Below are positions 1-45,000 of a stretch of 51,809 nucleotides of DNA, piece by piece (position 1 is the stretch's first letter; every line of letters begins with the position of its first letter). The translations under genes were made by a program, and so were the position numbers. Origin of the DNA: a virus. Taxonomy: Duplodnaviria > Caudoviricetes. The notes under the pieces were generated by a model. The model was not told the DNA's origin, did no database searches, and saw only the letters and a list, made by a program, of their open reading frames with translations. Location of the stretch: positions 1 through 51,809 of the IMG/VR virus record IMGVR_UViG_3300025374_000001; one strand, 5' to 3'.

Positions 1-120
1 GTACAGCATAATGTGTGGGGGAGAGTTGAAAGGAATATAATATAAAAAATATAATATTATATAATATTATATTTTTTATATTATATTCCTTTCAACTCTC
101 CCCCACACATTATGCTGTAC
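1..120. repeat. Left hairpin telomere (perfect 120-nt palindrome, axis 60/61)
   Basis: 1-60 is the exact reverse complement of 61-120; AT-only centre ATAATATTAT|ATAATATTAT; same sequence at the right end. Confidence 0.9.
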
Positions 121-127
121 ATTATAT

Positions 128-345
128 CGGCGAGTGTCGGCGTCACTATAGGGCGCCGTGTCGGCGTTATTATTATTATCTTCTGTACGCTGGCCCGGCG
201 TATCGAATATACGGCGTGACATGTGTCATATTATGTGCGCCGTGCGTCGCATTATTTTGTTCGGCGTGCGTCTTGTCTCTATGTATGTCGCGTCGGCGTG
301 TCGAATATACGGCGTGTCTCGAGACCAGTGTAGGTGCGCCGTGTT
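128..345. repeat. Subtelomeric CGGCG(TG) motif array
   Basis: About 11 CGGCG/CGCCG copies; CGGCGT(A/G)TCGAATATACGGCGTG at 196-218 and 294-316. Confidence 0.7.
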
Positions 346-408
346 AAAAATAGTCAGGTAAAAAGACAGGGAAAAAGGCGTAGATATAGACAGGAGAAAA
401 AAGTTGTA

Positions 409-705
409 TTATTCCTCAAACCGTGCGTTGTAATAGTTATATGCGTCGTCTATTAGATACGTAAATCGCGTCGGATAAAAGTCCCAACCTGTGATAACGT
501 AGTCCTCATTGTCGCTCTTTTTGTATATGTCTCTAATCAAGTCGGTTGCGTTGTTGAACATAATAACAGTTTGTCCGTCTTCAGACACGTACAACCACTT
601 GCCATATGCGTCGGTGTAAACCATATTACCGTCTAGATATAGGACCCCTTGTTTTAATATAGTCACAGGAGTAAACCGTATCTTACTATTCGCGACGTTT
701 TTCAT
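409..705 (-). CDS. Hypothetical protein (98 aa), ITR copy 1
   Basis: GGAGGTGG Shine-Dalgarno, ATGA overlap with upstream small ORF, T-rich tract downstream. Confidence 0.8.
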   Translation of the reverse strand: MKNVANSKIRFTPVTILKQGVLYLDGNMVYTDAYGKWLYVSEDGQTVIMFNNATDLIRDIYKKSDNEDYVITGWDFYPTRFTYLIDDAYNYYNARFEE

Positions 706-860
706 GGCACCACCTCCACGATTATCTCTTGATTAGTTGTTAGCATGTATTCAACGTATTGCCTAATCCATGTCATTGGCGCAAGAATTTCTATTCCGTC
801 GTGTTTCCTGGTTATGTACGCGCCGTTTTTTGAGATTTTTATGTACATAGGTGCTGTCAT
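702..860 (-). CDS. Small hypothetical protein (52 aa, MTAPMYIKISKNG...), ITR copy 1
   Basis: Hand translation; fills the gap between neighbouring genes, stop overlaps the next ATG; below ORF-track cutoff. Confidence 0.7.
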   Translation of the reverse strand: MTAPMYIKISKNGAYITRKHDGIEILAPMTWIRQYVEYMLTTNQEIIVEVVP

Positions 861-863
861 AGC

Positions 864-1148
864 CTAAGTTGTTGTCAACTCCGTGGCGTACTTGATTAAC
901 CTTATCGCCAATGCAATTGCCTCCGACGGTGTTAATGCTATGTCAACATAACCCTCACTGTCGCAATCTACTGGACCTATTGTCATGATTATTTCCTCTC
1001 CCTCCGTGTTCATGGTAAATCTGTCGTCGCGCAAGCTTTCGTATATGTACGTCGTCGTCTTGGGGTCCAGTTTTAGCATGTCCTTTATCGTTTGTATTAT
1101 TTGTTCCGTGGGGATTTTTTGGGGGATTTTGGTTGCCATGGTTGCCAT
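864..1148 (-). CDS. Hypothetical protein (94 aa; probable leaderless start at 1139), ITR copy 1
   Basis: BRE/TATA GCGAAAAGTTTTTAAA about 22 nt upstream of the second ATG. Confidence 0.8.
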   Translation of the reverse strand: MATMATKIPQKIPTEQIIQTIKDMLKLDPKTTTYIYESLRDDRFTMNTEGEEIIMTIGPVDCDSEGYVDIALTPSEAIALAIRLIKYATELTTT

Positions 1149-1210
1149 GGAAACACGGATTTAAAAACTTTTCGCTCCCATTGCTCTTGACGAACGTAAA
1201 GAACACGGCG
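1140..1210 (-). promoter_or_regulatory. Promoter cassette A (BRE-TATA plus conserved upstream element)
   Basis: CGCCGTG..GTCAAGAGCAA..GCGAAAAGTTTTTAAA; paralogous to 2917..2990. Confidence 0.75.
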
Positions 1211-1239
1211 AGGTCTTTTAAGCAGGGAATTAAAAAGCG

Positions 1240-1461
1240 TTATTTGTAATGCTGTCCCTCTTGTGGGCCCGTCGCGCGTTTTTCCTCTTTACGTTTAGCA
1301 ACTTCTTTTAAAATGTATATATAGAGAAAAAATAATGGATATAAAAGCATTAGGGCCGTGATAAACGCCTTTAGGGGCCTATCAGACAACGCAACTATTA
1401 TTGCGAATACAGTAATCGCAATTCCTGCTGCACCTAAAAAGGCGATTAATTCGATTAGCAT
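1240..1461 (-). CDS. Small membrane protein (2 predicted TM helices), ITR copy 1
   Basis: Two long hydrophobic segments and a basic C-terminal tail. Confidence 0.8.
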   Translation of the reverse strand: MLIELIAFLGAAGIAITVFAIIVALSDRPLKAFITALMLLYPLFFLYIYILKEVAKRKEEKRATGPQEGQHYK

Positions 1462-1477
1462 GGTGGTGCGCTCTATA

Positions 1478-2758
1478 CTATAGTCTATACGGCTCTATAC
1501 GCGATAATATAACTTTGTTGCGTTGCGACGCGTCGTGTCTATGCACGTCATTATGCGTTATTCTGATTACGTATTTGTCAGCAAACTTGACTTTACGTAT
1601 TCCGTGCTCTTTATGGTTAAACTCTATTACACTCTCTTGATTAACTATATAGGTATTAGGCACGACTATATAGAGTATCAGTGGGTCCAGCACTAGAGGC
1701 TTTATAGGTGGTGTATACGCCACGGATACAGGTATCACGTTTTTCAACGTGATGCGGTGGTTGCCAATTTGTCTAACCATGTCAAGAGACTCTAATTTGT
1801 CTAGTTGTCTGATTACGTCGTCTACTAGCATGCGCCTTTTTTCGTAAGCAAATTCTCCCATTGTGCGTATTATAGTATCACCGACCAAGTCTAAGTAATA
1901 TGCTCTTGAAATTATGTCTACTGTAATTTGTGTGTCTCCGTCGCGCATTTTTACCGTCGTCGTCGTGTTGTCGTCTACAACGTTGCTAGGAGACTCTATA
2001 GTAAAGTATTCACTTAACAATTTCACAATTCTTAACCTATTCCTCCGTGCATATTTGGACCACCTACTGCTGTCTGTGCCTCCAGGTATCACTATTTCAT
2101 AATGAGTGCTGTTGCCTTTTCTGACTTGATAAGATATACCATAATCATTTAGTAGAGCCGCGATTTTGTCAGCTATTAGATACTCCCTGTATTCCATTAT
2201 CTGTCTGTCAATTGCGCCAATGACATTAAAGTCATTGGGATACTTATGCACGACTATCTGTAAGTCTCCCTGGACTCTATATGTTGTAAAGTCAGCATTG
2301 CCTATATCCACGACGTATTCGTCGTCTAGAATATCCGTCGTGTATTCAAACACGCGCTCTCTAAAGAAACTCTCCTTTACGCGTATAATAAGTGAACCGT
2401 TTTCTGTTATTCGTGCATTTATCAGGTATCCCCCTATGTTTGCATAGTTGACTCTATTGATAAACAGTTTATTAACGTCGGTGTCAATTCCGACGACGTA
2501 ATATTTTTCATTATACTCCCTGTCTGTCATGTTTATCTTTAAGTATATATAATTGTCGGAGTAAACAACCTCTCTTACTCCCTTACGTTGCAACGCCACA
2601 TAACGCAGGTAATATTCGTCGTGGACAGGCAGGAAGTGCTCTTTAGCAAACATTTTGTGCGCCTTATAAGGCACCATGTCTCTTTTTGCTAGCATGTCAA
2701 CTAATACACTTATACGCATGTCCACGTCGGCTTTTTGTCTAGACGTCGTGACTAGCAT
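1478..2758 (-). CDS. Hypothetical protein (426 aa) with RxQGD...HxEH motifs, ITR copy 1
   Basis: Long ORF in operon; motifs YRVQGD, IGNH, HKEH. Confidence 0.85.
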   Translation of the reverse strand: MLVTTSRQKADVDMRISVLVDMLAKRDMVPYKAHKMFAKEHFLPVHDEYYLRYVALQRKGVREVVYSDNYIYLKINMTDREYNEKYYVVGIDTDVNKLFINRVNYANIGGYLINARITENGSLIIRVKESFFRERVFEYTTDILDDEYVVDIGNADFTTYRVQGDLQIVVHKYPNDFNVIGAIDRQIMEYREYLIADKIAALLNDYGISYQVRKGNSTHYEIVIPGGTDSSRWSKYARRNRLRIVKLLSEYFTIESPSNVVDDNTTTTVKMRDGDTQITVDIISRAYYLDLVGDTIIRTMGEFAYEKRRMLVDDVIRQLDKLESLDMVRQIGNHRITLKNVIPVSVAYTPPIKPLVLDPLILYIVVPNTYIVNQESVIEFNHKEHGIRKVKFADKYVIRITHNDVHRHDASQRNKVILSRIEPYRL

Positions 2759-2760
2759 AT

Positions 2761-2916
2761 TTAATCCGCGCGTTGTCTTCTTATTTCCTGCTCTTGTTGT
2801 GGCGCGTTGTTGACTATTTTAACGCGCGCGCCTTTTTCTAGTGCGTTTATGGAAAAAAGGGTTTCTTTTTGGGGGGCGTACGCCCCCATTGTTTGGTTTT
2901 TGTTTTTGGTTGCCAT
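2761..2916 (-). CDS. Small hypothetical protein (51 aa, MATKNKNQ...), ITR copy 1
   Basis: Hand translation; leaderless ATG after promoter cassette B, stop 2 nt before the next ATG. Confidence 0.65.
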   Translation of the reverse strand: MATKNKNQTMGAYAPQKETLFSINALEKGARVKIVNNAPQQEQEIRRQRAD

Positions 2917-2990
2917 GGTTGTAAGAATTTCCCATGTTTATAAAGCTTTCGCCCGCCGTTGCCCTTGACAAACATAAAACCATGGCGTGG
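2917..2990 (-). promoter_or_regulatory. Promoter cassette B
   Basis: CGCCATG..GTCAAGGGCAA..GCGAAAGCTTTATAAA; paralogous to cassette A. Confidence 0.75.
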
Positions 2991-3019
2991 TATCCCCCTT
3001 ATCTTGTCGCCGTTTTTTC

Positions 3020-3605
3020 CTCTTTACATGTGTCTTCCTCGAGGAAATAAGTATCCAGAGACAATTTGACAATGTATAAAGGGGCCATTGGAAAAAGGTA
3101 TAATACTGTCCTCCGTTGGAAAAGCATATGTAAAGGGGAGAGACACGGCGGGCCCCCTTTTTTTGTAATATTCTATTTATTATAGAAAAAAATAAGAATA
3201 TAAAAGAAAAATAGAAATATGTTAAGTGCTACATTCGACATGTGTAAAGCGTAGATTAGATATATATCGATACATATACGTCGTTGGAAAATTCTATGTA
3301 AAGGGGAGACGCGCGACATGCGTATCGCATATTTACTATAGCAAATACACGCGCGCCTTATACACCTTGACATATATTGAACGTCGCATTAGAGGCATGT
3401 AAACTCCGTATTCGATATATATCGCTACATATTCGGCTTTAGAATTTTCCATGTAAAGGGTGGTGTTTACAAAATGTGGAGGCACATAATGCGCGCCTTT
3501 TTCCTGCGCCGTGTTTTTGTGTAAACATTGTGCTTTACTAGTGTAAACACGTTAGGTGATACATAAAATATGTACCGCAATATGCGTTAGATACATGTAA
3601 AAAAT
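3020..3605. repeat. Iteron-like motif field 1 (TGTAAA/TTTACA, TGTAAAGGGGAGA)
   Basis: Non-coding; repeated motifs at about 3023, 3129, 3243, 3297, 3398, 3452, 3520, 3542, 3596. Confidence 0.6.
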
Positions 3606-3659
3606 AGGATTGATATATAGCATGCGAAAAATTTTTAAATAAGCAAAATCCTAATTGCC

Positions 3660-4031
3660 ATGGCAAAAACAACAACCCAAACAACGACGCAAATCCCCGA
3701 CGACGTGAGACAGTATATCCCCGAAATATTAGACGCGCTAAAACGCGCATTAGCGACAGGAGATTTTGAAATTACAATAGTATATGATAACGTGACAATT
3801 AAAATCCCCGACATAAAAGTCTACCTATACGATAACTTAATGCGCGTTATATATAAGGATATCCACATTATATACAGCAATTATTCCGCAACAGTAAAAG
3901 TGTATAAGGACCCATATGGCGACCCTGAAGTTTATCATGCACATGACTATTGGGTTCAATTAGACGAAATACATGGACTGGCTATAGAAAAAGTAAAGAG
4001 TCGGCTAGAAAAAATATTAAACCAGTTTTAA
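3660..4031 (+). CDS. Hypothetical protein (123 aa), ITR copy 1
   Basis: GCGAAAAATTTTTAAA promoter about 20 nt upstream, leaderless ATG, T-tract downstream. Confidence 0.85.
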   Translation: MAKTTTQTTTQIPDDVRQYIPEILDALKRALATGDFEITIVYDNVTIKIPDIKVYLYDNLMRVIYKDIHIIYSNYSATVKVYKDPYGDPEVYHAHDYWVQLDEIHGLAIEKVKSRLEKILNQF

Positions 4032-4044
4032 AAAGGACCTCTTT

Positions 4045-4590
4045 TTTCCTATTTACATATAAAGTTGTGGGTTTTTTCGTGTCCAGAGACAATATTATAA
4101 TTGTAAAAAAAGGGTGATTAGGGCAAGAAAAAAGGTGTTGATATAGACACGCAGATATATCGCACTCTACAATATGGTGCGCACTTTATCTCACCCTTTA
4201 CATATATGTTACTCGAGGAAATACGTATAAAGGCTAATGTTTATATTGTGTCGGAGAGGCCATTGATATATGTGCATGTGTAGTTGAATATGATGGCGAA
4301 GTGGGTTTATTGTGTGTAAAGGGGAGACGGTCGTGGGGACTGTGTTTTTTGCACTATTCTATTTATTATAGCAATTTGGGTCCCGACGTGGATTAAGGGG
4401 TCCCCCCTCTTTACATATGTAAAATGTTGGATAGGGTCCAGATTTTCCCACGTTTTTTGTGTAAATGTCTTGCCGTGGTTTTTGCAAATTCCTGCTTTTT
4501 GTATTGAAAATATTCCGTGGAGGCATGGCAAATTGTTGTTTTTTCCGTGTCCAGAGACCTCTTTGTTGTTGTAAAGAAGGGGAGACAAAA
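4045..4590. repeat. Iteron-like motif field 2
   Basis: TTTACATATGTAAA palindrome 4410-4423, TGTAAAGGGGAGAC 4315, GTCCAGAGAC 4081 and 4549, CTCGAGGAAATA 4212. Confidence 0.6.
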
Positions 4591-4919
4591 AGCATGGCCT
4601 TCTACGTGATGTCTTGAGACTTGACGCTGGCGATGGAAAGCCGGGTCCTCGACAGCTAGTCTTAAAGCTTGAGACATTTGAAACCATTATATAATATATG
4701 GGGCTGTGTCTGAAGGCCTTGTCCTTCGACTGCGACGCGACGCACCTCTTGGCAGGCGTGCGGGGCCTGGGTGCTGGACCTGCCCCTGTGTGCGTGCGCG
4801 CGCGTCTGGCGGGGGTCTCGCGACTGGCGGGTCGGTGGGCGCCAGGGCGGGTGGGGCGTGCACGCCAGGTGCCGGTCTTAAAGCTGGAGACAGCTGGAGA
4901 CGACATGTACGTATCAATA

Positions 4920-5040
4920 CTGCGCAGATGAGGATGAGCCCCCGGGGGCCCCCGACGGCCCCCTGCCCCGCCCACCCGCTTGGCGCTGGCGGGTCGGGCC
5001 TGGCAGGCAGAGGAACCCATCCGCCGGGACCGCGGTACTG
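4920..5040 (-). ncRNA. Candidate small structured RNA, ITR copy 1
   Basis: GC-rich long hairpin with G-U pairs on this strand, downstream of BRE-TATA GCGAAAAGCTTTTAAG (5075-5060); no credible ORF. Confidence 0.45.
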
Positions 5041-5307
5041 AGGTGGGAGGAGTCCCCAGCTTAAAAGCTTTTCGCCTGGCGTCGGGACGGGGCCGGGCGT
5101 GAGCCTGCGCGTCGCGCATGTCGCTGGCTGGCGCCTGGACCAGGCCCCCGCCCCTTGGTTGAGAAACGCGCATATTTTTAAGCTTTGGGTCGGTTTTGTG
5201 GGACGGCTGTTGCAGGTCTGCGTGTGTGGCGCTGTGCAGGAGGTTCGGCGGGGGCTTTTTCATTAAATTTAGTGGAAAGGCATAAAAGGCGGTGATATCT
5301 GCGTGTC

Positions 5308-6297
5308 GTGAAGGTTGCATGTCCGCGTTGCGGGAAACCTGGCTATCTGACTAAGGTAAGGGTCCGCGACAGATACTACATGAGAGTTGACCACCATGAA
5401 GGCGGGAGGAGGACCGCCTGCTATCTTGGCAGGGACGTCGAGGAGTTGCGACGTTACGTCGAGCAGTTGGCAGACGGAAGTAGCGCGTTTAAGGTGGTTA
5501 AGGTTCCCGGTAGCGACTTCCACATTGCAGACTTGTTGCACCCGAGGATCGAGAGACTGTGTCCCAAGAGGTGCACATTTGTCGAGGTATTCGGTGGTAG
5601 TGGCTACATGTCGCAGACGGTGAGTAGACAGAAGTTCGGCAACGTCGTCTACAACGACATAAACAACATGCTGGTCGCCCTTTACAGACACGTGAAGGAA
5701 AGCCCGGAGCGTCTGGCCTTCGTGGCGTCGCTCCTGCCCTACTCTCGCGTCTTCCATGGAATCATCAAGGAGCTGTTGCGGGAAGGCAAAGACCTTGCAC
5801 CGTTTGTGGTTGCAGCTCTGGCGTTTTATGCGCTTAATGCGTCGTTCTTCGGTACATACGACATGCGCGGTTTCGCCTACTCCGTCAACCCGCACAATAA
5901 CGAAGCCAGGGCGTATAGGTCGAGAGTCGCGTCTATACTGAAGTACGCTGAGAGGTGGAAGGACGTGGTGATAGAGAATTTGGACTTCAGAGACGTCATT
6001 AAGAAGTACGACTCCGAAAATACAGTGTTTTATCTCGACCCTCCGTTTGTCGGTCGCGACGCAGAAACCTACGACATTAAATTCACAGTAAGCGACCTGC
6101 GCGAAATGGCGCTGATACTGACTCAGATAAGAGGCGCATTTCTCCTCAAGCTGGACCGCGAGACGTACGAGCTGATAAGCGACGTGCTGACCAGAGACAG
6201 ATACGTCGTGGAGACGTTTGAGCGCACGTTGCATATGGGGAGAGTAAGAGACAGACGGAGAGACAAGTGGCTCCTCACGCTGGTGAGCTCCAGGTGA
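5308..6297 (+). CDS. Dam/D12-class N6-adenine DNA methyltransferase with N-terminal Zn-finger-like domain, ITR copy 1
   Basis: Motif I VEVFGGSG, YNDIN, IENLDF, catalytic YLDPPF; N-terminal CPRC..H..CYLG; GGCGGTGA SD before GTG start. Confidence 0.9.
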   Translation: MKVACPRCGKPGYLTKVRVRDRYYMRVDHHEGGRRTACYLGRDVEELRRYVEQLADGSSAFKVVKVPGSDFHIADLLHPRIERLCPKRCTFVEVFGGSGYMSQTVSRQKFGNVVYNDINNMLVALYRHVKESPERLAFVASLLPYSRVFHGIIKELLREGKDLAPFVVAALAFYALNASFFGTYDMRGFAYSVNPHNNEARAYRSRVASILKYAERWKDVVIENLDFRDVIKKYDSENTVFYLDPPFVGRDAETYDIKFTVSDLREMALILTQIRGAFLLKLDRETYELISDVLTRDRYVVETFERTLHMGRVRDRRRDKWLLTLVSSR

Positions 6298-6353
6298 CGC
6301 GCAACCGCTGGCTCCACAGGCCCCCGCCCCGGGGCTGAAAAACACGCATGTTT

Positions 6354-6809
6354 TTAGGGGGTGTGCGCGACGCAGGACAACGGCATCCACTGTATTCCGT
6401 TTCGCGCAACGTCTGGATACGCCAGCCTTATGCTGAGCAACAGCTTGCTGAGCGACAGAGACATACCGTAGGCGACTGCCAGTTTCATAAGGCGTGCGAC
6501 GTAGGGATCCCTTTCCTCGATCTTTCTGTACACCTCAGCGCCTCTCTCCATCAGCTGTCTAGATGCGACGTACGTCTTCACCCCTGCTACTTCATCTACC
6601 TCAGTGGAGAGGAGCCCCCCGCGTATGAGCTCCTCCACTGCCTGCTCCACCTCCTCGCTCCACGGCACAGCCCACCACGTCTCGAAGTATGTATTGACGA
6701 GCGACGTCTCCCTGTGTAGCATGTACATCACCGCCTGAAGTCTAGCAAGCCCCTCGACGCGACCGCCAGCGAGGTAGAACGCCATAGCGACCACGTCTTT
6801 TAAATTCAT
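6354..6809 (-). CDS. Panacea/DUF4065 (SocA/YwgA-like) domain protein, ITR copy 1
   Basis: True start MNLKDVV with TTAAATA upstream; pattern GRVEGxxRLQxxxY..F..PWSEEV..L..GLL..LL.SI..YP. Confidence 0.65.
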   Translation of the reverse strand: MNLKDVVAMAFYLAGGRVEGLARLQAVMYMLHRETSLVNTYFETWWAVPWSEEVEQAVEELIRGGLLSTEVDEVAGVKTYVASRQLMERGAEVYRKIEERDPYVARLMKLAVAYGMSLSLSKLLLSIRLAYPDVARNGIQWMPLSCVAHTP

Positions 6810-6942
6810 CGGCAACAGCTCCACCGAGGTATTTAAGCACATCTGCGTATATAAACATTCAGTTCGGCGTCTTCGCGCTCCACCGCAACCAGACAAAGAC
6901 GCGACGACAACTGTTATAAACACCTTCGTACAGATGAACATC

Positions 6943-7376
6943 GCCCCCCGGGGCCGCTGGCTAAGGGAAGAAAGAGGGCCGCCCCGAGCCCGCGAGGGCC
7001 ATGACGGGGGCACCCCCGGCGGGTTCCCCACAGATGCGGGCTGTGGGGGACAAGCCTGGCGGGGCGATACGCCCACCTGGCGTGCCCACCGCGGTCTCTG
7101 CGACCGCCGTGGGATGGGACCCACACCCAAGACGCCGGGACCGGGCCCCGCGCGGATCCACCTCGTCGGTGCCGTATGGGGCGCCGGGGGAGGGATCCGC
7201 GCCTTCCCCGCAGTCGCCGAATAGGGCGTCGCGGGGCCGGGGCGACAGACGGCCAAGGGCGGGGGCTGGTTGGCGGCGGGGTGCCGTCAGGCTGCCCGCC
7301 CCGTGAGGCGCGCCGGCCCGACTCTGCCCCAAGGCGGGGTGGGGCTAGAGCCCCCGACTGCCCACACGGCGGCTAG
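6943..7376 (+). ncRNA. Candidate large structured RNA with kink-turn, ITR copy 1
   Basis: Very GC-rich; at least 7 hairpins with G-U pairs on the + strand; K-turn 6981-7011; TTATAAA at 6914-6920; 5'/3' closing stem. Confidence 0.6.
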
Positions 7377-7698
7377 CGTGAAGTATGTTAATTAAAAAAC
7401 CAATACGAAAAAAAAGAGAGAAAAACACGAAACCCCCTAAACTCCGTCAAGAAGAAACTATACATTCCACCCCGCCGAAAAACAATTTTTTTACAAGTTT
7501 CACCCACCCCCCTCATCCAGCATAAAAACCAGACGTTGGACAACGCCACATCCAACATATATACATTCACCCCAAACACACACCAGTAGATATATAAACA
7601 CTACAACAGAGACACGACAACCAAACCAAAACAAAAAACGACACGTGTTCGGCAGAAGTCGGAGTGAATTGTTATATTTTGCTCTCTTTTTTCAGTGT

Positions 7699-8061
7699 AT
7701 GGGAGGTATTGTGAATAGACACATATTGGCGGTACATCTCGACAAAGACGAAGTGTGTGTCTTGGCTAGGGAGGTGACTGACGACCGTGTGTATGTCGAG
7801 TATATGAAACACGTGTTGTATACGTCGTTTGTTTTGATAAGGAGGATAGAGCTGGAAGGTCGCCGATTGCGTGTGCTTGAACGTCGGCTTGAATTCACCG
7901 CGCTTGAACGCGAGGTGTATGCAACAACCAAGGTATATGTTGACAAGGCGCTAAGCGAAGAGGAGACGAAAGACCTATACGAAAGTCTCACTACATTTTT
8001 GCAATATCCAGGCGATTTTGGCTATCTGTTTAACCGTCTCACATCGGAGAAGAGAGAATAG
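7699..8061 (+). CDS. Hypothetical protein (about 120 aa)
   Basis: ATG at 7699 follows a TTATATTTT box; first gene of the unique region. Confidence 0.75.
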   Translation: MGGIVNRHILAVHLDKDEVCVLAREVTDDRVYVEYMKHVLYTSFVLIRRIELEGRRLRVLERRLEFTALEREVYATTKVYVDKALSEEETKDLYESLTTFLQYPGDFGYLFNRLTSEKRE

Positions 8062-8226
8062 TCAACCAAAAAACTGGAAATAGAAAATGGCAACTTTTTT
8101 GTGAGTCATTTGAGCAACATTGCAAAGCCCAGTTTTTCATTCTTTTACAATTTTTTGGCTAATCAAGCCGATAGACAATGACATATCTAGTATAGATATA
8201 CAAGTACAGAAAAAGTATAAATATGT

Positions 8227-8898
8227 GTGTATTGCAATTTTCGTATGGCAATAAGACAACAAGTGCTTAGACAACTGCATAGGGTGCTCAACAATTGCAT
8301 GATACCCGACATCGCAAGCGTAAACATTGCCATGATACAAGCACTGAATATGTTGTTTACCCAGCATTGTAGGAGAGTGGATCCAGCCGGTGACTGTCTT
8401 GTGGTACCAGCTTTTCCTGCATCGGATTTCAAGTCTGGGGACAAATACGTTGATGTGGTATATGCAAATGCGTTCATTAATGACGAATTCGAGATTACTC
8501 TCAGTTATCCAAAAACTGACATACTTGTCGCGAGACTTAAACCAGGTGTGGCCATTCCGATTGTGGGGTTCTACATTAACATTGGATGGTACCACATGTT
8601 GATTGCGCGACTAAACATATACCGCGATGTAACTAAGCGGGAACTGTGGAAGTCTGTGTTGTTGTTGCCATCAAACATCATCACGGCGTCGGCAGGAGGA
8701 TTTATAGTAACATTGTCTGAACCAATCATCGTTGGTCCAGGTGGCGATATCGCCATAGAAGCTGTAATAGGTTCTTCATACAATAGAGAATTTGTCTCCA
8801 ATATGCGTGTAACAGTCGCTTGGTTGCCACCCGTTGTGTTTACGAGCAAATCGCTGTTCCTTACATCTCCTGTTACAGAGTCAAACACTGAGTCGTAA
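8227..8898 (+). CDS. Hypothetical beta-rich protein (start uncertain)
   Basis: Long ORF with alternating hydrophobic strands. Confidence 0.75.
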   Translation: MYCNFRMAIRQQVLRQLHRVLNNCMIPDIASVNIAMIQALNMLFTQHCRRVDPAGDCLVVPAFPASDFKSGDKYVDVVYANAFINDEFEITLSYPKTDILVARLKPGVAIPIVGFYINIGWYHMLIARLNIYRDVTKRELWKSVLLLPSNIITASAGGFIVTLSEPIIVGPGGDIAIEAVIGSSYNREFVSNMRVTVAWLPPVVFTSKSLFLTSPVTESNTES

Positions 8899-8945
8899 AG
8901 ATTAGATTTATCGTCTGAAGTCAAAAAAAATCGTTTTTCTGTTTG

Positions 8946-9416
8946 TTATCTGTCTGGCATTATAAGGTCTAGTTCTTCATCTTCTGGCGATTCCTGTTGT
9001 TTGTGTTCTGGTTGACCATTTTGTCCATTCCTACCGTTATAACCATCTATCAAGTACGTCAGCGCTTGTCTTATTACACTGCTACGCGATTCGCCTGTGC
9101 TCTTCACAATTTTGTCAATGGTTTCTATCATGTCGATGGGTAATGTGATACAGATCATCCCATGTTTGCTTGAACGTGCATTATGCCCGTACAGCCGGTC
9201 GCCCACCTCTGGAATGCAAAACATTCTTTCACGACCTACCTGAAACTTGTATGGCAATACTAGTCTTCTGGTAATCAATGACCGTATTGCTAGGTATGCT
9301 CTTCTAGGCGAAGTATCGACTGCACGAGCAATTTCCTCAATTGTTGCGCAACCGCGCGCTTTTATAAACTTATATATCTTCTGAGTCAGCGCAACCCGTT
9401 CGTCTCCGTTTGGCAT
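8946..9416 (-). CDS. Transcriptional regulator, wHTH plus ribbon-helix-helix
   Basis: ATIEEIARAV..RAYLAIRSL (HTH); ITLPIDMIETID..SRSSVIRQAL (CopG/RHH). Confidence 0.85.
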   Translation of the reverse strand: MPNGDERVALTQKIYKFIKARGCATIEEIARAVDTSPRRAYLAIRSLITRRLVLPYKFQVGRERMFCIPEVGDRLYGHNARSSKHGMICITLPIDMIETIDKIVKSTGESRSSVIRQALTYLIDGYNGRNGQNGQPEHKQQESPEDEELDLIMPDR

Positions 9417-9459
9417 ATATAGCGATAATATTTTAATATTAATATTTTTCTGTTAGAGC

Positions 9460-10266
9460 ATGAATCGCGAACAAAAATTTGTGGCGTACGTCCGCGACGT
9501 GCCGAAAATCGAGTTTAAAAATTTCAGATGGGGTCTGCTGGCAAGCATGGCGTTTAGACCGCTAGAGTTGCCAGTAGTGCAACATGTCATGGTGGACATT
9601 GGCCTTAAAAATGCCAAAAGCGATGACTTCTACCCCCGACAGTTGCCCAAATATGTAGAGTTTATACACTCTATATTAGACGTCTACTGTTGCAAACATG
9701 TACAGGTAGTGGCCCCCGACAAGCTCTGCAACTTCGAGGAGACTGTGCACCGTTATGAGCACTTCCGGAAGGTAGCAGAGCGGGAGTTCGGCGACGCAAT
9801 TAAGCTTATGTTTGTTGTACAGGAGTATGTGCGTAGAGACGTGTTCAGTCGTCTAGACACGCTGTTGCGCGACTACGAGATACTTGCGTTGCCAACTAGA
9901 GTTGTGTGTCGCACACGCAACGAGCTGATACGTTGTTCTGAGCACTATCAACTATGTGCGTCGTATTTGGCACATGTACTAGACAGATACGGCGATATCG
10001 CCCATAAAATACACCTACTAGGGCCGCCACTCAAGACATTGAAACGTCTAGGAGCAAACAACGTGCTTAGGTTTAGGTCTCTTGACACAATGTCCTACAG
10101 ACGCGCGCCAAATGAGACCGCAAAGAAACTTGCGTTTGGCGACGACGACAAGAGATGGCAAGTAACGACAGACGACGTGGCTAAGATGTGGGCAGTGTTG
10201 TGGTTTGCGTCTGCCAGCTTAATAACAAAAGGCGAAATATCGGCACTTGGTATCAAATATGGCTAA
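9460..10266 (+). CDS. TGT/DpdA-like (guanine transglycosylase-fold) protein 1, divergent
   Basis: Ordered motifs MVDIG, VAPD, FVVQ, IHLLG, SLDT match the TGT barrel pattern. Confidence 0.65.
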   Translation: MNREQKFVAYVRDVPKIEFKNFRWGLLASMAFRPLELPVVQHVMVDIGLKNAKSDDFYPRQLPKYVEFIHSILDVYCCKHVQVVAPDKLCNFEETVHRYEHFRKVAEREFGDAIKLMFVVQEYVRRDVFSRLDTLLRDYEILALPTRVVCRTRNELIRCSEHYQLCASYLAHVLDRYGDIAHKIHLLGPPLKTLKRLGANNVLRFRSLDTMSYRRAPNETAKKLAFGDDDKRWQVTTDDVAKMWAVLWFASASLITKGEISALGIKYG

Positions 10267-10816
10267 GGGCTTAACAGATAAGATAATCGCCCGACAACGT
10301 CGCATACTTGAATTCATTGAAAGCGAGATATGTGCCAACACGAAACAAGTAATCAATGCGTTTGGTTTGACACACAGCCAGGCGTTTTACGTCCTTCGGC
10401 AACTGAGAAACCAGGGACTGATAGAAGAGTACGTAATCGGAAAGATTTCACTGTGGTGCATCGCAGGTCATATACTCAATGATGTGTATGTAGACGATAC
10501 ATTCATATCTGCTTTGGACTTAGAGCAAGCTATATGTAGGATACTTGAAAATGTAAGGGGACATAAGGCGACTATGCGAAGTTCGTGGGTTGCAGATAAA
10601 ATTGCTGAGAAGGTGCAAGTGAATCCGCGACAAGTATTGTTGCTTGCTTACATATCGGAAATGTTGCCGATAATGCTGAGCAACGTCAAAAAGTCGGTGT
10701 TCAGAGATGCCAAGGCTATCGAGTTCTACGTAGTAGACACGTGTTCAATATGTGAACATTTCATCGAGTGTCCAACATGTGAAACGTTGAGAAAAAAGCT
10801 GAATTGTTTAGACTAG
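10259..10816 (+). CDS. Winged-helix DNA-binding protein with Cys-rich C-terminus
   Basis: ILEFI..NTKQVINAFGLTHSQAFYVLRQLRNQGLI; two CxxC motifs. Confidence 0.8.
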   Translation: MAKGLTDKIIARQRRILEFIESEICANTKQVINAFGLTHSQAFYVLRQLRNQGLIEEYVIGKISLWCIAGHILNDVYVDDTFISALDLEQAICRILENVRGHKATMRSSWVADKIAEKVQVNPRQVLLLAYISEMLPIMLSNVKKSVFRDAKAIEFYVVDTCSICEHFIECPTCETLRKKLNCLD

Positions 10817-11140
10817 TTAAGAACTCGTCTTTTTCAGCTCAACCATCAGTGTTTTGTATGTAGCGTAGTTGACACGTATCTCGAATATTGCGCTCAGAAA
10901 CACAATAGCAACCGCTATAGGCACAAGAAATACGCCGACCCAGAACAACACGTACGTCGTGAGATACACAGGCTCAGGTAACTGAGGCAAGATGTCCTTA
11001 GCCTGCGAGTAGACGAGTCCCGTGTAATTCCGCATGAATGTGTAGCCCCACGCGATGAAGTACGTCATCATAAGCAGAAACGCAATTCCAAACAGTCGCC
11101 AGCCGTAACCCATTGTCTTGTCTGTGACTCTCTCTGTCAT
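10817..11140 (-). CDS. Membrane protein (2 TM)
   Basis: Two hydrophobic helices; last gene of the protease operon. Confidence 0.8.
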   Translation of the reverse strand: MTERVTDKTMGYGWRLFGIAFLLMMTYFIAWGYTFMRNYTGLVYSQAKDILPQLPEPVYLTTYVLFWVGVFLVPIAVAIVFLSAIFEIRVNYATYKTLMVELKKTSS

Positions 11141-11165
11141 GTTTCAATAAGGACAAACTAGATAT

Positions 11166-11882
11166 TTAAGCATTGTTGCCCTTGACAACAAACACGCCTG
11201 AGCCTGAGAACCCAGGCAGTGCAATGACCTTGTCGTCTTTAGCTATATATGCCTTCATCTTGTAGAGCTGATTGTTGGGCCCATACACATAAGCATCGCC
11301 ATAGCCTATGATCCGCGTCTCTATAGTTACGAACTTGCCATTGAAGTAGTCATATGCTATATATCTAACAGTTCGACCAATTGGGTGTTCTCGGTAATAC
11401 GGCGCAGGCGTGTAACCAGCTACTCTGCCCGTCGGGTTGCCAAACGACAACACAAGATCTGGCATCTTATAATCAACACCCCTAGAAATTACGGCATAGT
11501 CATAATAGTTCGTGCAGTCTCGGTAAAAACAGCGCCACGACATAGGAACCATCTTAATCTTTTCGACTACCTCAACTTTGGTTATTTTTGGCCCACTTGA
11601 ACAGTTTTCCGAGCACTCGACGAACAGTGGCGTAAGCTCCAGACAGTGCGCAGCAGTGACGTATCTGCCGTCCTTCCCCATGGGCGGGCTGCACCTGTCC
11701 AGAGTCCCGAAAGGGCGGGGCATGTCTGGTTCCGCAGTCATGAAACGTAACTCGCCGACCTCCTCGACGATCCAGCCCTCCATCATCATCTTCATTGCGT
11801 ACTTATCCAGCTTTGTTACAAACAATATCTTGCGTTCCTTGTCTTCAAAAACGATACTTTTCTTCCGGAAAAATATGTTCAT
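11166..11882 (-). CDS. Trypsin-like serine protease
   Basis: Catalytic triad motifs VTAAHC, DYAVI, GFSGSGVF. Confidence 0.85.
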   Translation of the reverse strand: MNIFFRKKSIVFEDKERKILFVTKLDKYAMKMMMEGWIVEEVGELRFMTAEPDMPRPFGTLDRCSPPMGKDGRYVTAAHCLELTPLFVECSENCSSGPKITKVEVVEKIKMVPMSWRCFYRDCTNYYDYAVISRGVDYKMPDLVLSFGNPTGRVAGYTPAPYYREHPIGRTVRYIAYDYFNGKFVTIETRIIGYGDAYVYGPNNQLYKMKAYIAKDDKVIALPGFSGSGVFVVKGNNA

Positions 11883-13114
11883 GTATATACCGTAGATCCG
11901 TACCTATTAAATCTTTTTTTGTTATTTGAAGCCGTATTCCTGTAACGCGCCAGACACACAAGTAAGAGTATTACGGCGACTAATGTCCCATATAAACACC
12001 ACGTACACGTTTCTGATTCTTGTGCTGTGTACGTAACCGTATGATACGTAGTGGTCATGTAGATGACCGTCTCTGTGGCTGTTGTTGTGTATGTTACAGG
12101 CAGAGTTACAGTAGTCGTGTAGGTGACCGGCACAGTCGATATGTGTGTCATGTGCATAGTCGTCGTATACGTCTCAGTCACTGTATGTGTGGCGGTCACC
12201 GTAGTTGTTACAGTGATTGTCGTCGTTGTTTGTTCGGGACAGTAAGAAACCGTCACGGAGGTGTCGGCGGTTGTTTGGCGGGTTGCGACCAGGGCAATCA
12301 GTATTTTGTCTTGTAACCCAGTGGCGTTTGTCAAGAGCGACGACGAGAATGTGTACACTCGGTTGGGCAACACGGGCCGGTAGATACAGTACATCGCTGA
12401 GTTTGGCTCCATGTATCCAGCGCACTCGTCAAAATCTACGTATACCGGATCGCGCCCCCACGTCCACGGCGACAACAGGAAGTTCCAATATGCCTGTCTG
12501 AGATTGTAGCTGGGAAACGCATATGTAAGTGTGGCATTAAGCGGTGAATACCGCCAAGCTAACCAAGCGAAAAAGGCGCCGTATTGATAGGCGCACAAGT
12601 TAGGCGCTTCACAAGACCACGGGTCTTGTCTATACAGTCTTCTATCCCAGAAATCCTGCACATATCCGTATCTCTGCCACTGTCTTGACTGGTAAACTCT
12701 GACTGCCATGTAGTAGCTGGCTAAGCCATCTGCATGGGCTTCACTCCACCAGCCGTAACCCTTTCCGCCGTCTCCAACCGCATATTGTAAAGCATGAGCC
12801 ATCTCGTGGTATGCCAAATGTTGTAACCATGTACGCGATATGTCGCAACGGAACTCCATCTTGTATGCACATACGCCAAATGGCCCTATCCGACCATACG
12901 TCACTGCAGGGTATCTAATATCGCTTTTCAACTCGACGCGGAAATCTGGACATAATGCAGGCGCCCTTATGTCTCGCGTGTATGAGTCGTAAGCCTGTTG
13001 TAGATAGGTGCGCAACGCGTCTACGTAGTCCTGTGGTGCGTTGCACATGTTGATAATCGTGAAGGAGTATGCAACTGTGGCTAACAGCGCCACGAGGAAA
13101 AAAATACGTATCAT
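11879..13114 (-). CDS. Exported, membrane-anchored zinc metalloprotease
   Basis: N-terminal signal peptide, HEMAH plus downstream WWSEA, Thr-rich linker, C-terminal TM helix and basic tail. Confidence 0.85.
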   Translation of the reverse strand: MIRIFFLVALLATVAYSFTIINMCNAPQDYVDALRTYLQQAYDSYTRDIRAPALCPDFRVELKSDIRYPAVTYGRIGPFGVCAYKMEFRCDISRTWLQHLAYHEMAHALQYAVGDGGKGYGWWSEAHADGLASYYMAVRVYQSRQWQRYGYVQDFWDRRLYRQDPWSCEAPNLCAYQYGAFFAWLAWRYSPLNATLTYAFPSYNLRQAYWNFLLSPWTWGRDPVYVDFDECAGYMEPNSAMYCIYRPVLPNRVYTFSSSLLTNATGLQDKILIALVATRQTTADTSVTVSYCPEQTTTTITVTTTVTATHTVTETYTTTMHMTHISTVPVTYTTTVTLPVTYTTTATETVIYMTTTYHTVTYTAQESETCTWCLYGTLVAVILLLVCLARYRNTASNNKKRFNRYGSTVYT

Positions 13115-13120
13115 GTTCTA

Positions 13121-13438
13121 TCAACGCGTCTCGACCATAAGTCTCAATATCTCTAGTTCCTCCCGCATGGCGCGCAACTCCAACTCGATAAGTCTAACCC
13201 ACGTCGCAACCAGATTAGCCAAGCTTGCGGTTCCAAAGAACACAGACAACAACCACGATACAGAGACAAATATGTTGAACATCATGCCGAAAAGCGACGC
13301 CGTTGCATATATGCCAAAAATAGACGCCAACACGGCAAAGACTCTGTATAACCGCGACCTTACCCACGCCCCAAACAGCGCACCAAGCACCATTGTGATA
13401 ACAACCCACGGCGTAACGTCAACAGTTAACACCATCAC
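13121..13438 (-). CDS. Small membrane protein (about 3 TM, charged coiled C-terminus; holin-like topology)
   Basis: Hydrophobicity pattern; translationally coupled to neighbours. Confidence 0.75.
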   Translation of the reverse strand: MMVLTVDVTPWVVITMVLGALFGAWVRSRLYRVFAVLASIFGIYATASLFGMMFNIFVSVSWLLSVFFGTASLANLVATWVRLIELELRAMREELEILRLMVETR

Positions 13439-13740
13439 AGCCCAACTACCGATATGCTGAACTTAGTAGCAATAACTGTCGCAAAGGCCCCTGTATACAC
13501 GGCTATGTCCTTGGGACTTTTGTCTTGCCACCACTGGTATATGACATACAGCGCTGTGAGCATCACTGATGCCAGTGCGCCGTATGGCGATATCGTAAGC
13601 GAGTTAGCTGCAACCACCGCAAGCGCTACGTGACCTAGATCTGTATACTTAACATTTACAGACTTCATCTTCATAGATACATATGTACGCATAAGATACA
13701 AGACAAACGCCGTTCCGTATAGGAACAGATCTATGAACAC
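13435..13740 (-). CDS. Small membrane protein (3-4 TM)
   Basis: Hydrophobicity pattern; TTATAAA box about 20 nt upstream. Confidence 0.75.
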   Translation of the reverse strand: MFIDLFLYGTAFVLYLMRTYVSMKMKSVNVKYTDLGHVALAVVAANSLTISPYGALASVMLTALYVIYQWWQDKSPKDIAVYTGAFATVIATKFSISVVGL

Positions 13741-13824
13741 GGTATATTAATTATTCCCCTTTATAATTTTTTAGGTCAATCATACTACGGCGACATCTGT
13801 TGATGTATGGGGCATAAAATTGTT

Positions 13825-15090
13825 TTAAGGATGATGTTTGCGCAAATCGAACACAGGCCACCCGCTCAAGTCTGACAACTTTCTTATACAGTGCTCCACG
13901 CTACTACAACTATATTCATCGTCATACCACGAGGGCGAACGTGTACCATAATTAGCCATCCATATAATTCTATTAAGTTTGGTGGCTTGGTAGGCTAAGA
14001 AACAACTGACAGGCTCTCTGATCAGCATGTAGGCAATCACTCCAATATACCATTCTAGTCGAATTAAATCATACCAAACGTCATCATACGGCGCTTCGAT
14101 TATTCCGCCCTTTTCATACTTTACATATACATAACCACAATTTTTGACCGGATCATGTGGTATCGCATATCTAATGTACTCAACAGCGTTTGGCACCTTT
14201 TGTGTATTGTCTACTATATCATCATCTATGGGTCTAGGCCACCAAGATCCGAAACATTCGACAAAACCACCTATATAGTGGTGCGATCGATCAAGCTCCA
14301 CATAATCAGCTCGGCGACAACGACTGGGATTTGGGTGCGTGTAAAGCACTCCGTAAAACGCGCCAGCTGATACTCCACGACGTGGTTGTGTATCTATCAT
14401 TACTACAAATGCAACTGCCCTATTATTTACGATGTTGTATACTTCGTCTGGGGTCATTGTGGTGATACCATAATTTACGAAGATGATTGTGCCGTCTGTT
14501 ATCCACTTCGAGGCGGTTTCCCAATCATCTGGATCTACTAATATGATTAATGGAAGAAGTCTGCCCATCTCTAAACTCGTCGCCACATCTACCTCGTTGT
14601 GTTTGACTATTGCTTTTCTGAGCAACAGCCTAACTGCTAGATCTAGACACTTCGCCACATCGATCAGCGTATTTGTGTGCTCTGGCATTATAACGTTGCC
14701 CGTCTTCAGGTATTTGTACGTCGAAAGTATGCGGTGACATTCAAGCAACATATCGTATGCACGCACGTATCTCCTGTTCCCTCTCGCAATTAACCTGTTG
14801 AGTTGGTCAACTAAGACGTTGATTATAGCCTTGGCGTAGTCCGCCAAGACGTTCCAGTCCTGCGCATAGGCGTAGCGACCCTTCTGAAGTGTCGAGAGCT
14901 GTTGAGATGCGCGTTGATATGCATTTATCAAGTCTTGTAGTGGCGTCTCGAATACCGGGTAGCCTACAGTGGAAAACTCGTGATCAACTGTGTCATACTT
15001 GACGGTTGCAGTGTCAGACAGTTTCTTAATCAGTAATGTCACATATTCGTGACCAGTTGCAACGTCTGTGAAATCAGGGCCAGAACTCAC
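13825..15090 (-). CDS. Putative minor virion/terminal-structure protein
   Basis: End of the structural operon; repeated G..(DWN/HTN) helical motifs as in neighbouring structural genes. Confidence 0.6.
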   Translation of the reverse strand: MSSGPDFTDVATGHEYVTLLIKKLSDTATVKYDTVDHEFSTVGYPVFETPLQDLINAYQRASQQLSTLQKGRYAYAQDWNVLADYAKAIINVLVDQLNRLIARGNRRYVRAYDMLLECHRILSTYKYLKTGNVIMPEHTNTLIDVAKCLDLAVRLLLRKAIVKHNEVDVATSLEMGRLLPLIILVDPDDWETASKWITDGTIIFVNYGITTMTPDEVYNIVNNRAVAFVVMIDTQPRRGVSAGAFYGVLYTHPNPSRCRRADYVELDRSHHYIGGFVECFGSWWPRPIDDDIVDNTQKVPNAVEYIRYAIPHDPVKNCGYVYVKYEKGGIIEAPYDDVWYDLIRLEWYIGVIAYMLIREPVSCFLAYQATKLNRIIWMANYGTRSPSWYDDEYSCSSVEHCIRKLSDLSGWPVFDLRKHHP

Positions 15091-15698
15091 GACAACTCAA
15101 ACAAAATCCTATTAATAATATCTGGCAACCTCTCATTGACAAGATCTAGCCACGCCCTCACCCTGTCGTCTATATGCTTGAATGTGATGAGGAGATCTTG
15201 AAGCGTTTCCCAATCTAATGTATCGCCAATTTTTTTGTAACACAGTACGACTCTGCCGACAACAACGCAACCGCTAACGCCGCCAATGCCTATGAACACC
15301 GACTGTGGCGTAGGCGTCGTCGTGATCTTCCCAGTCTCCAAATCGAGATATTTCGGAGCTAGCGAGGCAAAGCCGGGTTCATTACCTGTGTCGCTGTCGG
15401 TATCTAATACACGAATGAGAGACGTCTCGACCGCCCTCAACAGGTCATGCATGGCTGTTAACCTGCGCAGTCTTTCTGACGCAAATGCTCTATCCAGCTG
15501 GGGTAACAATACGGCAATTGTCTCTAGACCGGTAGCAAAATCTATGTTTGACAATTTTAGAATTTCTCCATCCGTGCCAATTGCATAATCAGGTACGTAT
15601 ATAGCACGTACATACCGTTCATATCCCTTGGCAACATCCCACGTAGGCCAAAATCCATACTTAGGCAGATTCGCAGGCAGAGAGGAGGTGAAACTCAT
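15087..15698 (-). CDS. Putative minor structural protein
   Basis: Gene context; NEPGFA motif recalls rudiviral minor proteins (from memory). Confidence 0.55.
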   Translation of the reverse strand: MSFTSSLPANLPKYGFWPTWDVAKGYERYVRAIYVPDYAIGTDGEILKLSNIDFATGLETIAVLLPQLDRAFASERLRRLTAMHDLLRAVETSLIRVLDTDSDTGNEPGFASLAPKYLDLETGKITTTPTPQSVFIGIGGVSGCVVVGRVVLCYKKIGDTLDWETLQDLLITFKHIDDRVRAWLDLVNERLPDIINRILFELS

Positions 15699-44094: not shown

Positions 44095-44433
44095 ACTTTT
44101 TCCTTGGTTTTAATGTCGCTTTTTCATTATCTAAATATTCTTACAGCTTAGCGCTTTCTGTTTCCACGCCGTTTTTTGTTTTGGTTTGGTTGTCGTGTCT
44201 CTGTTGTAGTGTTTATATATCTACTGGTGTGTGTTTGGGGTGAATGTATATATGTTGGATGTGGCGTTGTCCAACGTCTGGTTTTTATGCTGGATGAGGG
44301 GGGTGGGTGAAACTTGTAAAAAAATTGTTTTTCGGCGGGGTGGAATGTATAGTTTCTTCTTGACGGAGTTTAGGGGGTTTCGTGTTTTTCTCTCTTTTTT
44401 TTCGTATTGGTTTTTTAATTAACATACTTCACG

Positions 44434-44867
44434 CTAGCCGCCGTGTGGGCAGTCGGGGGCTCTAGCCCCACCCCGCCTTGGGGCAGAGTCGGGCCGGCGC
44501 GCCTCACGGGGCGGGCAGCCTGACGGCACCCCGCCGCCAACCAGCCCCCGCCCTTGGCCGTCTGTCGCCCCGGCCCCGCGACGCCCTATTCGGCGACTGC
44601 GGGGAAGGCGCGGATCCCTCCCCCGGCGCCCCATACGGCACCGACGAGGTGGATCCGCGCGGGGCCCGGTCCCGGCGTCTTGGGTGTGGGTCCCATCCCA
44701 CGGCGGTCGCAGAGACCGCGGTGGGCACGCCAGGTGGGCGTATCGCCCCGCCAGGCTTGTCCCCCACAGCCCGCATCTGTGGGGAACCCGCCGGGGGTGC
44801 CCCCGTCATGGCCCTCGCGGGCTCGGGGCGGCCCTCTTTCTTCCCTTAGCCAGCGGCCCCGGGGGGC
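44434..44867 (-). ncRNA. Candidate large structured RNA, ITR copy 2
   Basis: Mirror of 6943..7376. Confidence 0.6.
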
Positions 44868-45000
44868 GATGTTCATCTGTACGAAGGTGTTTATAACAGT
44901 TGTCGTCGCGTCTTTGTCTGGTTGCGGTGGAGCGCGAAGACGCCGAACTGAATGTTTATATACGCAGATGTGCTTAAATACCTCGGTGGAGCTGTTGCCG

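Follow-up and report, generated by a model that had tools for sequence, protein, structure and literature searches.

Bacterial phages are known to carry large structured noncoding RNAs (GOLLD, ROOL). These two occur in viruses and can reach high abundance, and OLE has a protein-binding kink-turn, or K-turn (bioRxiv 10.1101/2024.12.08.627333). In archaea, L7Ae binds K-turns in many RNAs (PMC5539422), and the C/D and H/ACA sRNAs, RNase P and SRP share the standard form of this motif (PMC5539422; PMC8191799). A full-text literature search, with subscription journals largely outside its coverage, found no large structured RNA from an archaeal virus.

The window analysed here is a stretch of 51,809 nt and a complete linear viral genome. 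It carries a gene-free element of 77 per cent G+C (window, 47 per cent) that belongs to an undescribed family of viral structured noncoding RNA, known from four partial sequences. Its position, parts and surroundings are given in Table 1.

Table 1. Positions of the element, its structural parts and adjoining features in the window
Feature	Position	Strand	Basis or remark
Predicted noncoding RNA, ~444 nt, four side-by-side domains	6940..7383	+	fold z, pair probabilities, covariation, RNA contigs
Identical second copy, right terminal repeat	44427..44870	-	sequence comparison
Archaeal TATA box (TTATAAA + 3 nt)	6914..6923	+	26 nt before 6940
First downstream T7 run, possible terminator	7486..7492	+	~100 nt past fold
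Domain 1	6940..7068	+	closing helix 6940-6952/7055-7068, K-turn 1 arm, purine-rich linker 6961-6975, hairpin 7023-7051
Domain 2, length-variable	7071..7146	+	three-way junction 7076-83/7132-39, 7085-7113, 7115-7129
Domain 3	7150..7202	+	long hairpin, strongest covariation
Domain 4	7203..7383	+	rod 7203-7237/7350-7383, junction with K-turn 2 arm (7248-7314) and hairpin 7316-7345
K-turn 1, standard	6982..7009	+	sequence, descriptor, shuffles
K-turn 2 candidate	7248..7314	+	AA 7255-56 opposite bulge CGU 7302-04, GA 7305-06
Protospacer, 32 nt, 2 differences	7344..7375		flanking CRISPR repeat in contigs of 3/3 runs
Second protospacer	ends at 7174		same sense as RNA; run X3
Left inverted terminal repeat, 7,640 bp	1..7640		100% complementary to 44170-51809
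D12 adenine methylase gene, inside left terminal repeat	5308-6297		Pfam scan
Divergent neighbour, 151-aa protein, outside RNA	6357..6809	-	weak SocA/Panacea- or PadR-like lead

The carrier virus and its likely host

The carrier is rudivirus-like in that its genome is linear, has inverted terminal repeats, forms a 120-nt palindrome at each end and encodes a SIRV-type capsid protein. The capsid gene is ORF 27258-27629, which matches the Sulfolobus-virus coat protein (PF12193, E 2.5e-24); its product is 33-38 per cent identical to rudivirus capsids among the 40 of 42 GenBank records listed and 50-93 per cent identical to 54 metagenomic relatives, whose contigs reach 49 kb. These rod-shaped-type viruses form a clade that has no close GenBank record, and a full-text search, again largely outside subscription journals, found no paper on it. 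The element is present twice because it lies inside the inverted terminal repeats, and each copy, placed near the inner edge of its repeat, faces inward. An initial annotation of this DNA had placed the element at both genome ends, and the identical copy in the other repeat agrees with this.

Since the three genome-contig stretches that hold a 22-mer of the CRISPR repeat are all titled Pyrobaculum, there is good reason to take that genus as the host. The inference reaches the genus and not strain WP30, none of whose 80 array spacers matches the window beyond 16 nt. The spacer for 7344-7375 continues for a further 10 letters, which disagree with the window at 7376-7381 and match it at 7382-7385, and because of the disagreement it is likely to derive from another variant of the RNA gene; its depth in run X2 is 401, against 75 for the virus. 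Judged by the repeat direction, its sense is presumably opposite to the + strand RNA. Because the spacers occur in both orientations, and also match elsewhere (5289), they are uninformative between the readings weighed below.

Several features of the surrounding genome may be described here. The adenine methylase gene is bracketed by 40-nt direct repeats (5141-5180 and 6317-6356, 85 per cent alike) with which it looks like a swappable cassette, and the N-terminus of its product has a weak PSV ORF131-like match. The 151-aa neighbour has no match in Pfam or PHROG, and in the atlas it matches (0.93) a cluster in which 21 per cent of the members carry PF13274; it is possibly antitoxin-like. As its 13 homologs span 95-156 aa, the 300-aa frame 6354-7256 that enters the element is not the real protein.

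The Pfam scan took in 55 ORFs chosen as likely genes from 262 mechanical ORFs of the window. At 43090-44094 this archaeal virus encodes a protein of 334 aa with 9 ankyrin repeats (E 1e-80), whose gene stops just short of the right terminal repeat, convergent with the right RNA copy. The cluster 39469-42382 suggests DNA modification, with a C5 cytosine methylase-like gene at 40705-41601 and a queuine tRNA-ribosyltransferase-like gene at 41603-42382 (PHROG E 1.4e-4); 40230-40688, which has no significant match, resembles by eye, in its motif, a second SocA/Panacea-type protein. A second G+C island (up to 75 per cent) spans 4640-5200, mirrored at 46610-47170. It holds no credible gene, is interrupted by a repeated AT-rich word, CTTAAAGCT, which stands at both 4661 and 4877 and in a variant form at 5061, shows many run X2 differences (4792-5080) and does not fold significantly over 4720-5170 (z -1.2 and -0.8); it is possibly an origin or a set of small promoters. 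In the AT-rich stretch 3000-4600 several motifs are duplicated at ~1,180-bp spacing, with copies of GTAAAGGGG at 3130, 3298 and 4316 and of TCCAGAGAC at 3054, 4082 and 4550, possible sites of protein binding or cassettes for recombination.

Probable transcript, fold and covariation

The TTATAAA word at 6914-6920, which the initial annotation had noticed 23 nt ahead of a G+C-rich block, is present as described, and the full 10-mer occurs only once in 1-44170. In Pyrobaculum WP30 the same 10-mer precedes the SRP RNA gene, 26 nt ahead of the point where G+C-rich sequence sets in, and 26-nt TATA spacing has been reported for Thermoproteus SRP RNA (PMC4731332). In the window this distance leads to 6940, where the 5' helix begins. 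The + strand folds better (z -3.91, a value reached by 0/100 shuffles) than the - strand (z -1.98, 4/100). Together with the SRP-gene-like spacing of the TATA word, this agrees with the + orientation proposed earlier, and both that strand and a 5' end near 6940 are very probable. The ends are drawn from the TATA spacing (5') and the last helix (3'), and the 3' end moves from 7376 to near 7383. By analogy with archaeal terminators, the downstream T7 run may be where transcription stops.

Contigs of run X3, a hot-spring metatranscriptome from one study, cover 6930-7395 without a break at a depth of 24-49, a cover from which strand, ends and level are not readable and to which DNA in the library may contribute. 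They begin 10 nt ahead of the start predicted for the RNA and run 12 nt past the fold; none lies at 6885-6929 or 7396-7430, while both DNA runs (X1 and X2) continue there. Run X1, and perhaps X2, may be the source of the window itself. Flanking X3 contigs reach a depth of 2.7-4.2, with one nearby gene (8254-8955) at 18.5. The second G+C island, over 4700-5165, and the longer stretch 4200-5165 have no X3 RNA contigs, and the missing cover at 4200-5165 and 7420-7580 is a weak hint. The element is probably an independent and abundant transcript.

The favoured model of the RNA is a predicted series of four side-by-side domains (6940-7068, 7071-7146, 7150-7202 and 7203-7383). Of the six hairpins initially proposed, five hold, with 7023-7051, 7085-7113, 7150-7202, 7257-7301 and 7321-7340 all pairing with probabilities of 0.85-1.0 at 37 C. 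Pairing is weaker at 70 C, and of these hairpins few besides 7150-7202 survive in the 85 C model. The 5' helix pairs 6940-47/7061-68 have a probability of 0.97 at 37 C and 0.65 at 70 C, and the rod pairs 7212-19/7367-74 of 1.0 and 0.92, the rod being predicted by folding and lying outside the covariation data. The sixth hairpin, 7206-7236, is not favoured and would cost +5.3 kcal/mol (+6.6 at 70 C). Neither is the proposed 5'/3' closing stem 6952-6959/7367-7374 (+9.1, and +5.3 at 70 C) nor the long-range GCAGUCG/CGACUGC pairing (+11.7, and +6.3 at 70 C), and the overall architecture built on that closing stem gives way to the four-domain fold. All three compete with the rod 7203-7237/7350-7383 and are possible alternative conformers, outside the coverage of the variant letters. 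Two features had escaped the initial annotation, namely the 5' helix 6940-6952/7055-7068 and the candidate second K-turn, formed by 7255-7256 and 7302-7306. The variant sequences support no pseudoknot.

Variants were sought among contigs of runs X1-X3 compared with 6885-7430, which gave three divergent pieces from X2 and X3 whose viral membership is putative. Covariation rests on four partial sequences and is expressed as random-placement counts, not R-scape. Matching base changes, which the initial annotation had named as the check to make, were found in these three partial variants, and they are strongest in the stem 7150-7202. In X3 record 8 (7093-7229, depth 24; 16 differences, 15 listed) 4/4 double-sided changes of this stem keep a Watson-Crick pair (7153/7199, 7155/7197, 7156/7196 and 7157/7195), a result reached by 0/100,000 random placements. 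The same record converts U.G to U-A in domain 2 (7137 G>A) and breaks the end pair 7150/7202 at 7150, the state of 7202 not being among the listed differences; five listed changes fall in loops or unpaired places, three of them loop changes of domain 3.

Three further stems also covary. X2 record 5 (7200-7356, depth 2.6; 26 differences, 19 listed) has 2/2 pair-keeping double-sided changes in the predicted stem 7257-7301 (7259/7299 and 7260/7298), reached by 1,328/100,000 placements, and among its listed differences one G.U becomes G-C and no model pair is broken. Two more double-sided changes (7253/7308 and 7251/7311) lie in the stem 7248-7254/7307-7314 and are reached by 7/100,000 placements, but this stem was drawn after the variant had been seen. 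X2 record 4 (898 nt, depth 5.4) keeps the hairpin 7023-7051 at its loose end with two double-sided and two wobble exchanges, as judged by eye. One-sided swaps between G.U and Watson-Crick pairs fit the + strand at 7137, 7254 and 7282 and at three places by eye, while one at 7249 fits the - strand better.

These data bear on the reading of the locus as a G+C-rich coding or chance stretch that has no functional structure. Open frames of 66-300 aa do overlap the element on both strands, but each frame in it has 1-4 stops and 60-66 per cent Gly/Ala/Arg/Pro, the 35 listed variant places fall on the three codon positions as 13/12/10, with no codon periodicity, and the homologs of the neighbour gene lack an extension into it. 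With covariation and a 124-nt expansion in one variant (see below) also against it, this reading is scarcely credible and already largely refuted.

Kink-turns and family membership

K-turn 1 is as the initial annotation had written it, a canonical K-turn with a GNRA loop, and all standard elements are present. GA at 6986-87 precedes a C stem (6988-91/6996-99) capped by a GCGA loop, and the bulge CAU (7000-02) is followed by GA at 7003-04, with C.C at 3b.3n and C:G at -1b:-1n. C helix, 3-nt bulge, tandem G.A and A.G and NC helix correspond to the standard definition in PMC8191799, which also gives ion-folding rules. Under these rules the C:G at -1b:-1n and C.C at 3b.3n predict folding in Mg2+ and the N1 form (PMC8191799). 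A strict descriptor matches 10/1000 dinucleotide shuffles and three places genome-wide on both strands, two of which are the repeat copies. K-turn 1 has no variant cover because X2 record 4, over the 579 letters at its 5' end, fails to match domain 1 at 80 per cent.

The candidate K-turn 2 departs from the standard form in the window, where A stands at 7255 in place of the standard G at 2n. X2 record 5 has G there, and thus GA opposite CAU-GA as in K-turn 1, against AA opposite CGU-GA in the window. With A at 2n and a Watson-Crick 3b.3n, the window form would be expected to fold poorly in ions alone (PMC8191799). At least two matches to a loosened descriptor occur in 14/1000 shuffles, and the NC stems of both K-turns carry a penalty of 2.7-4.4 kcal/mol in plain energy folding. 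On this modelled structure, the element is likely to bind host L7Ae.

In the whole window Rfam 15 has no match at the gathering threshold; below it, the best E is 3.5 on the element alone and 7.6 on 4500-7700. RNase P (RF02357) is not matched in the window or in the complete relative G001 described below, while the same model scores 192.7 bits in Pyrobaculum WP30, and the CR-I/CR-V words that form P4 (type T, type A) are absent from both element strands. Archaeal SRP (RF01857) is likewise unmatched in the window and the relative, and partially matched in WP30. Its hallmarks are the SRP54 site of helix 8 and the GNAR loop of helix 6 (PMC4731332), and the element has neither, permuted forms included. 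Aligned to the WP30 SRP RNA, the element obtains a score reached by 46/500 shuffles; a likeness based on a longest shared word of 13 nt was rejected, 110/2000 shuffles reaching that length. The WP30 SRP RNA (L095:1401-1720) itself fits only model positions 99-273 at 78.5 bits, against an Rfam cut-off of 96.5, and G+C-rich sequence starts ~100 nt earlier; it has an unusual Alu domain or arrangement. ARAGORN found no tRNA or tmRNA gene in the window. The lack of RNase P, SRP and tRNA signatures noted at the outset is borne out. An alternative raised with it, TnpB-associated RNA, has no Rfam match, and Pfam finds no TnpB/IscB nuclease gene for an omega RNA among the 55 ORFs scanned.

Another reading is that the element is a multi-hairpin modification guide, which hijacks host H/ACA(-like) or C/D machinery to modify host rRNA or tRNA. 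H/ACA(-like) guides are marked by a free ACA at 14-16 nt from the upper stem and by two-part pairing around a target U (PMC4652768). K-turn 1 resembles the apex of the Pyrobaculum sR206 consensus, and an ACA (7030-7032) sits 14-15 nt past its arm. This ACA, however, is paired within a stem of 11 bp and is missing from X2 record 4, and K-turn 2 has no suitably spaced ACA. C/D sRNAs, including MITE-like ones, are defined by terminal boxes C (RUGAUGA) and D (CUGA) and a length of ~50 nt (PMC6009581); in the element no box C occurs on either strand within 1 mismatch, and CUGA occurs once, on the - strand. Guide tests covered host 16S and 23S targets. The best C/D duplex with rRNA was 9 bp (shuffled mean 8.7), all 6/6 definitions of H/ACA-like pockets were at chance on WP30 16S/23S (30-200 of 200 shuffles reach the observed value), and seven single-stranded segments paired with host 16S/23S no better than shuffles. 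A guide role is very unlikely on these results. The letters 7154-7164 resemble the 16S 3' end, and this likeness was dropped as a variant alters them.

Homologs of the element were scarce. Blastn gave 8 short matches in GenBank phages (E 6) and 6 in plasmids (E 0.4), three RNA patterns had no match in IMG/VR viral contigs, and scans of viral contigs for the neighbour genes had none; records very near the window may lie outside the collections searched. A 17-nt pattern met 68 loci in JGI metagenome contigs, which are put down to chance because the best extend only to 21-25 nt; the capsid alignment retained 0/222 candidates in genome contigs. Among 62 Thermoproteales genomes, 0/62 match model R3 and 2/62 have a 30-nt DNA match, which in WP30 is flanked by sequence that has no G+C-rich structure; the neighbour protein has weak matches in 4/62, and window 1-20000 and the G001 island only short ones (12/62 and 11/62). 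With covariation, RNA contig cover and no Rfam match, the undescribed K-turn-bearing viral noncoding RNA of the initial annotation is upheld.

Possible roles and comparison with known systems

The other complete relative, G001 (33.3 kb, 2,645-bp terminal repeats, capsid 73 per cent identical), has a G+C island of ~300 nt (2101-2405, up to 83 per cent) in the same relative place and orientation as the element. It follows a TATA-like word by 27 nt and begins with an AUC-closed helix, as the element does. Its fold z is -1.4, it has no K-turn, its alignment score with the element is reached by 149/500 shuffles, and three window-built models match nothing in it; it is therefore a positional analogue only, and may be a second RNA type. 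The best-conserved parts of the two terminal repeats are the terminal palindromes (window 1-120, G001 1-79), which are 79 per cent alike over 63 nt.

One alternative is that the element serves replication, with the inward transcript acting as R-loop or primer for strand displacement, or with hairpins forming in displaced ssDNA. ColE1 RNA II offers a parallel for a primer. The symmetric, inward-pointing copies near the inner edge of each repeat and the placing of the G001 island, TATA-like word included, fit this; covariation alone cannot tell RNA from ssDNA, and both DNA strands fold (-143.7 and -136.1 kcal/mol). However, K-turns, a GNRA loop and G.U exchanges belong to RNA, pairing is predicted for the 3' end, an 898-aa primase-like protein is encoded by the virus (weak PHROG match, E 0.0017), and the island shares neither homology nor K-turn with the element. 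A replication role is improbable. An idea less probable still is that the element is a selfish passenger, MITE-like or a captured RNA, in a variable terminal region and of no service to the virus. It is patchy and absent from G001, and MITE-like sRNA elements are expressed at high level in Pyrobaculum calidifontis (PMC6009581), but the longest flanking repeat, terminal inverted repeat or target duplication is 6 nt, there is one copy per terminal repeat and only two in all, C and D boxes are wanting, and no Thermoproteales genome in the set of 62 gave more than the two short DNA matches.

X2 record 4 has 1 difference in 39 at 7045-7083 and 6 in 81 at 7158-7238, and between these blocks 198 letters replace 74 at 7084-7157, an expansion of 124 nt. 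Conserved blocks that flank a replaced, longer arm are a pattern of large structured RNAs, and the element may be a scaffold or catalytic RNA, either an RNA-only multimer or RNP like OLE, ROOL and GOLLD or a new ribozyme, with the K-turns as bends and with peripheral arms that vary about a conserved core. ROOL and GOLLD are phage-borne, abundant and unexplained in function, and a title cited in the same preprint reports a needed kink-turn in OLE (bioRxiv 2024.12.08.627333). Against this stand its length, below the 659 nt of ROOL and the more than 800 nt of GOLLD, and a lack of signatures, for neither a hammerhead core (CUGANGA, GAAA), nor a CR-I/CR-V word, nor a match to the Rfam small-ribozyme models, nor a variant-supported pseudoknot was found in it. 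A scaffold or catalytic role is a real but rather unlikely alternative.

The explanation we tentatively prefer is that the RNA acts on the host. The TATA box at 6914-6923 would drive an abundant ~440-nt + strand RNA of its own, host L7Ae would coat it at the two predicted K-turns, and the L7Ae-bound RNA would serve as a stable decoy or inhibitor of a host defence or RNA-handling factor. Taken as a whole, from covarying four-domain RNA and own transcript to L7Ae coat and decoy, this chain is a possibility to be held with reserve, and the decoy role and its target are a guess. The dose is doubled in the terminal repeats, where the neighbours are the adenine methylase gene and the gene that may be antitoxin-like, and strong promoters have been described on archaeal viral anti-defence genes, with phage pseudo-ToxI RNA as a precedent (PMC11065993). 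Conversely, the fold is more elaborate than a simple sponge requires, L7Ae autoregulation would buffer a sponge effect (PMC5539422), and the complete relative G001 has no detectable homolog of the element.

On the most ambitious reading, whose chances we put a little below even, no large structured RNA would have been described before from a hyperthermophilic archaeal virus, and this one would carry two K-turns and recruit L7Ae into an RNP with a conserved core and swappable arms, which disarms host defence or does chemistry at ~80 C and is a recurring CRISPR target. Should the RNA act on the host, archaeal viruses would have an RNA among their means of countering defence; should it be a scaffold or a catalyst, it would represent a new fold that withstands heat.

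Among known systems, the element is most like GOLLD, ROOL and OLE in being a large multi-hairpin noncoding RNA of unexplained function (bioRxiv 10.1101/2024.12.08.627333). It differs from them in having no Rfam match, in its source (an archaeal hot-spring virus), its 77 per cent G+C and its 444 nt, in the absence of a tRNA island (0 tRNAs) and in its two copies in terminal repeats. With the archaeal L7Ae-bound RNAs it has the standard K-turn in common, but it is virus-encoded and lacks their boxes, guides and conserved cores; the promoter word is common to it and the Pyrobaculum SRP RNA gene. Adenovirus VA RNA, a viral decoy RNA, is similar in proposed action. In Pyrobaculum sR201-210 a K-turn closes a short GC stem-loop at the arm tip and a purine-rich strand adjoins it (PMC4652768), an arrangement to which K-turn 1 and its linker are similar; the element is ~7 times longer than these RNAs (RF02804, which has no match to it at E 10), its ACA is buried and unconserved, and it has no rRNA target above chance. 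Finally, the pseudo-ToxI of phiTE is a short repeat in which we see no sequence or structural likeness to the element, and what the two may share is the proposed action, an abundant viral RNA that occupies a defence protein (PMC11065993).
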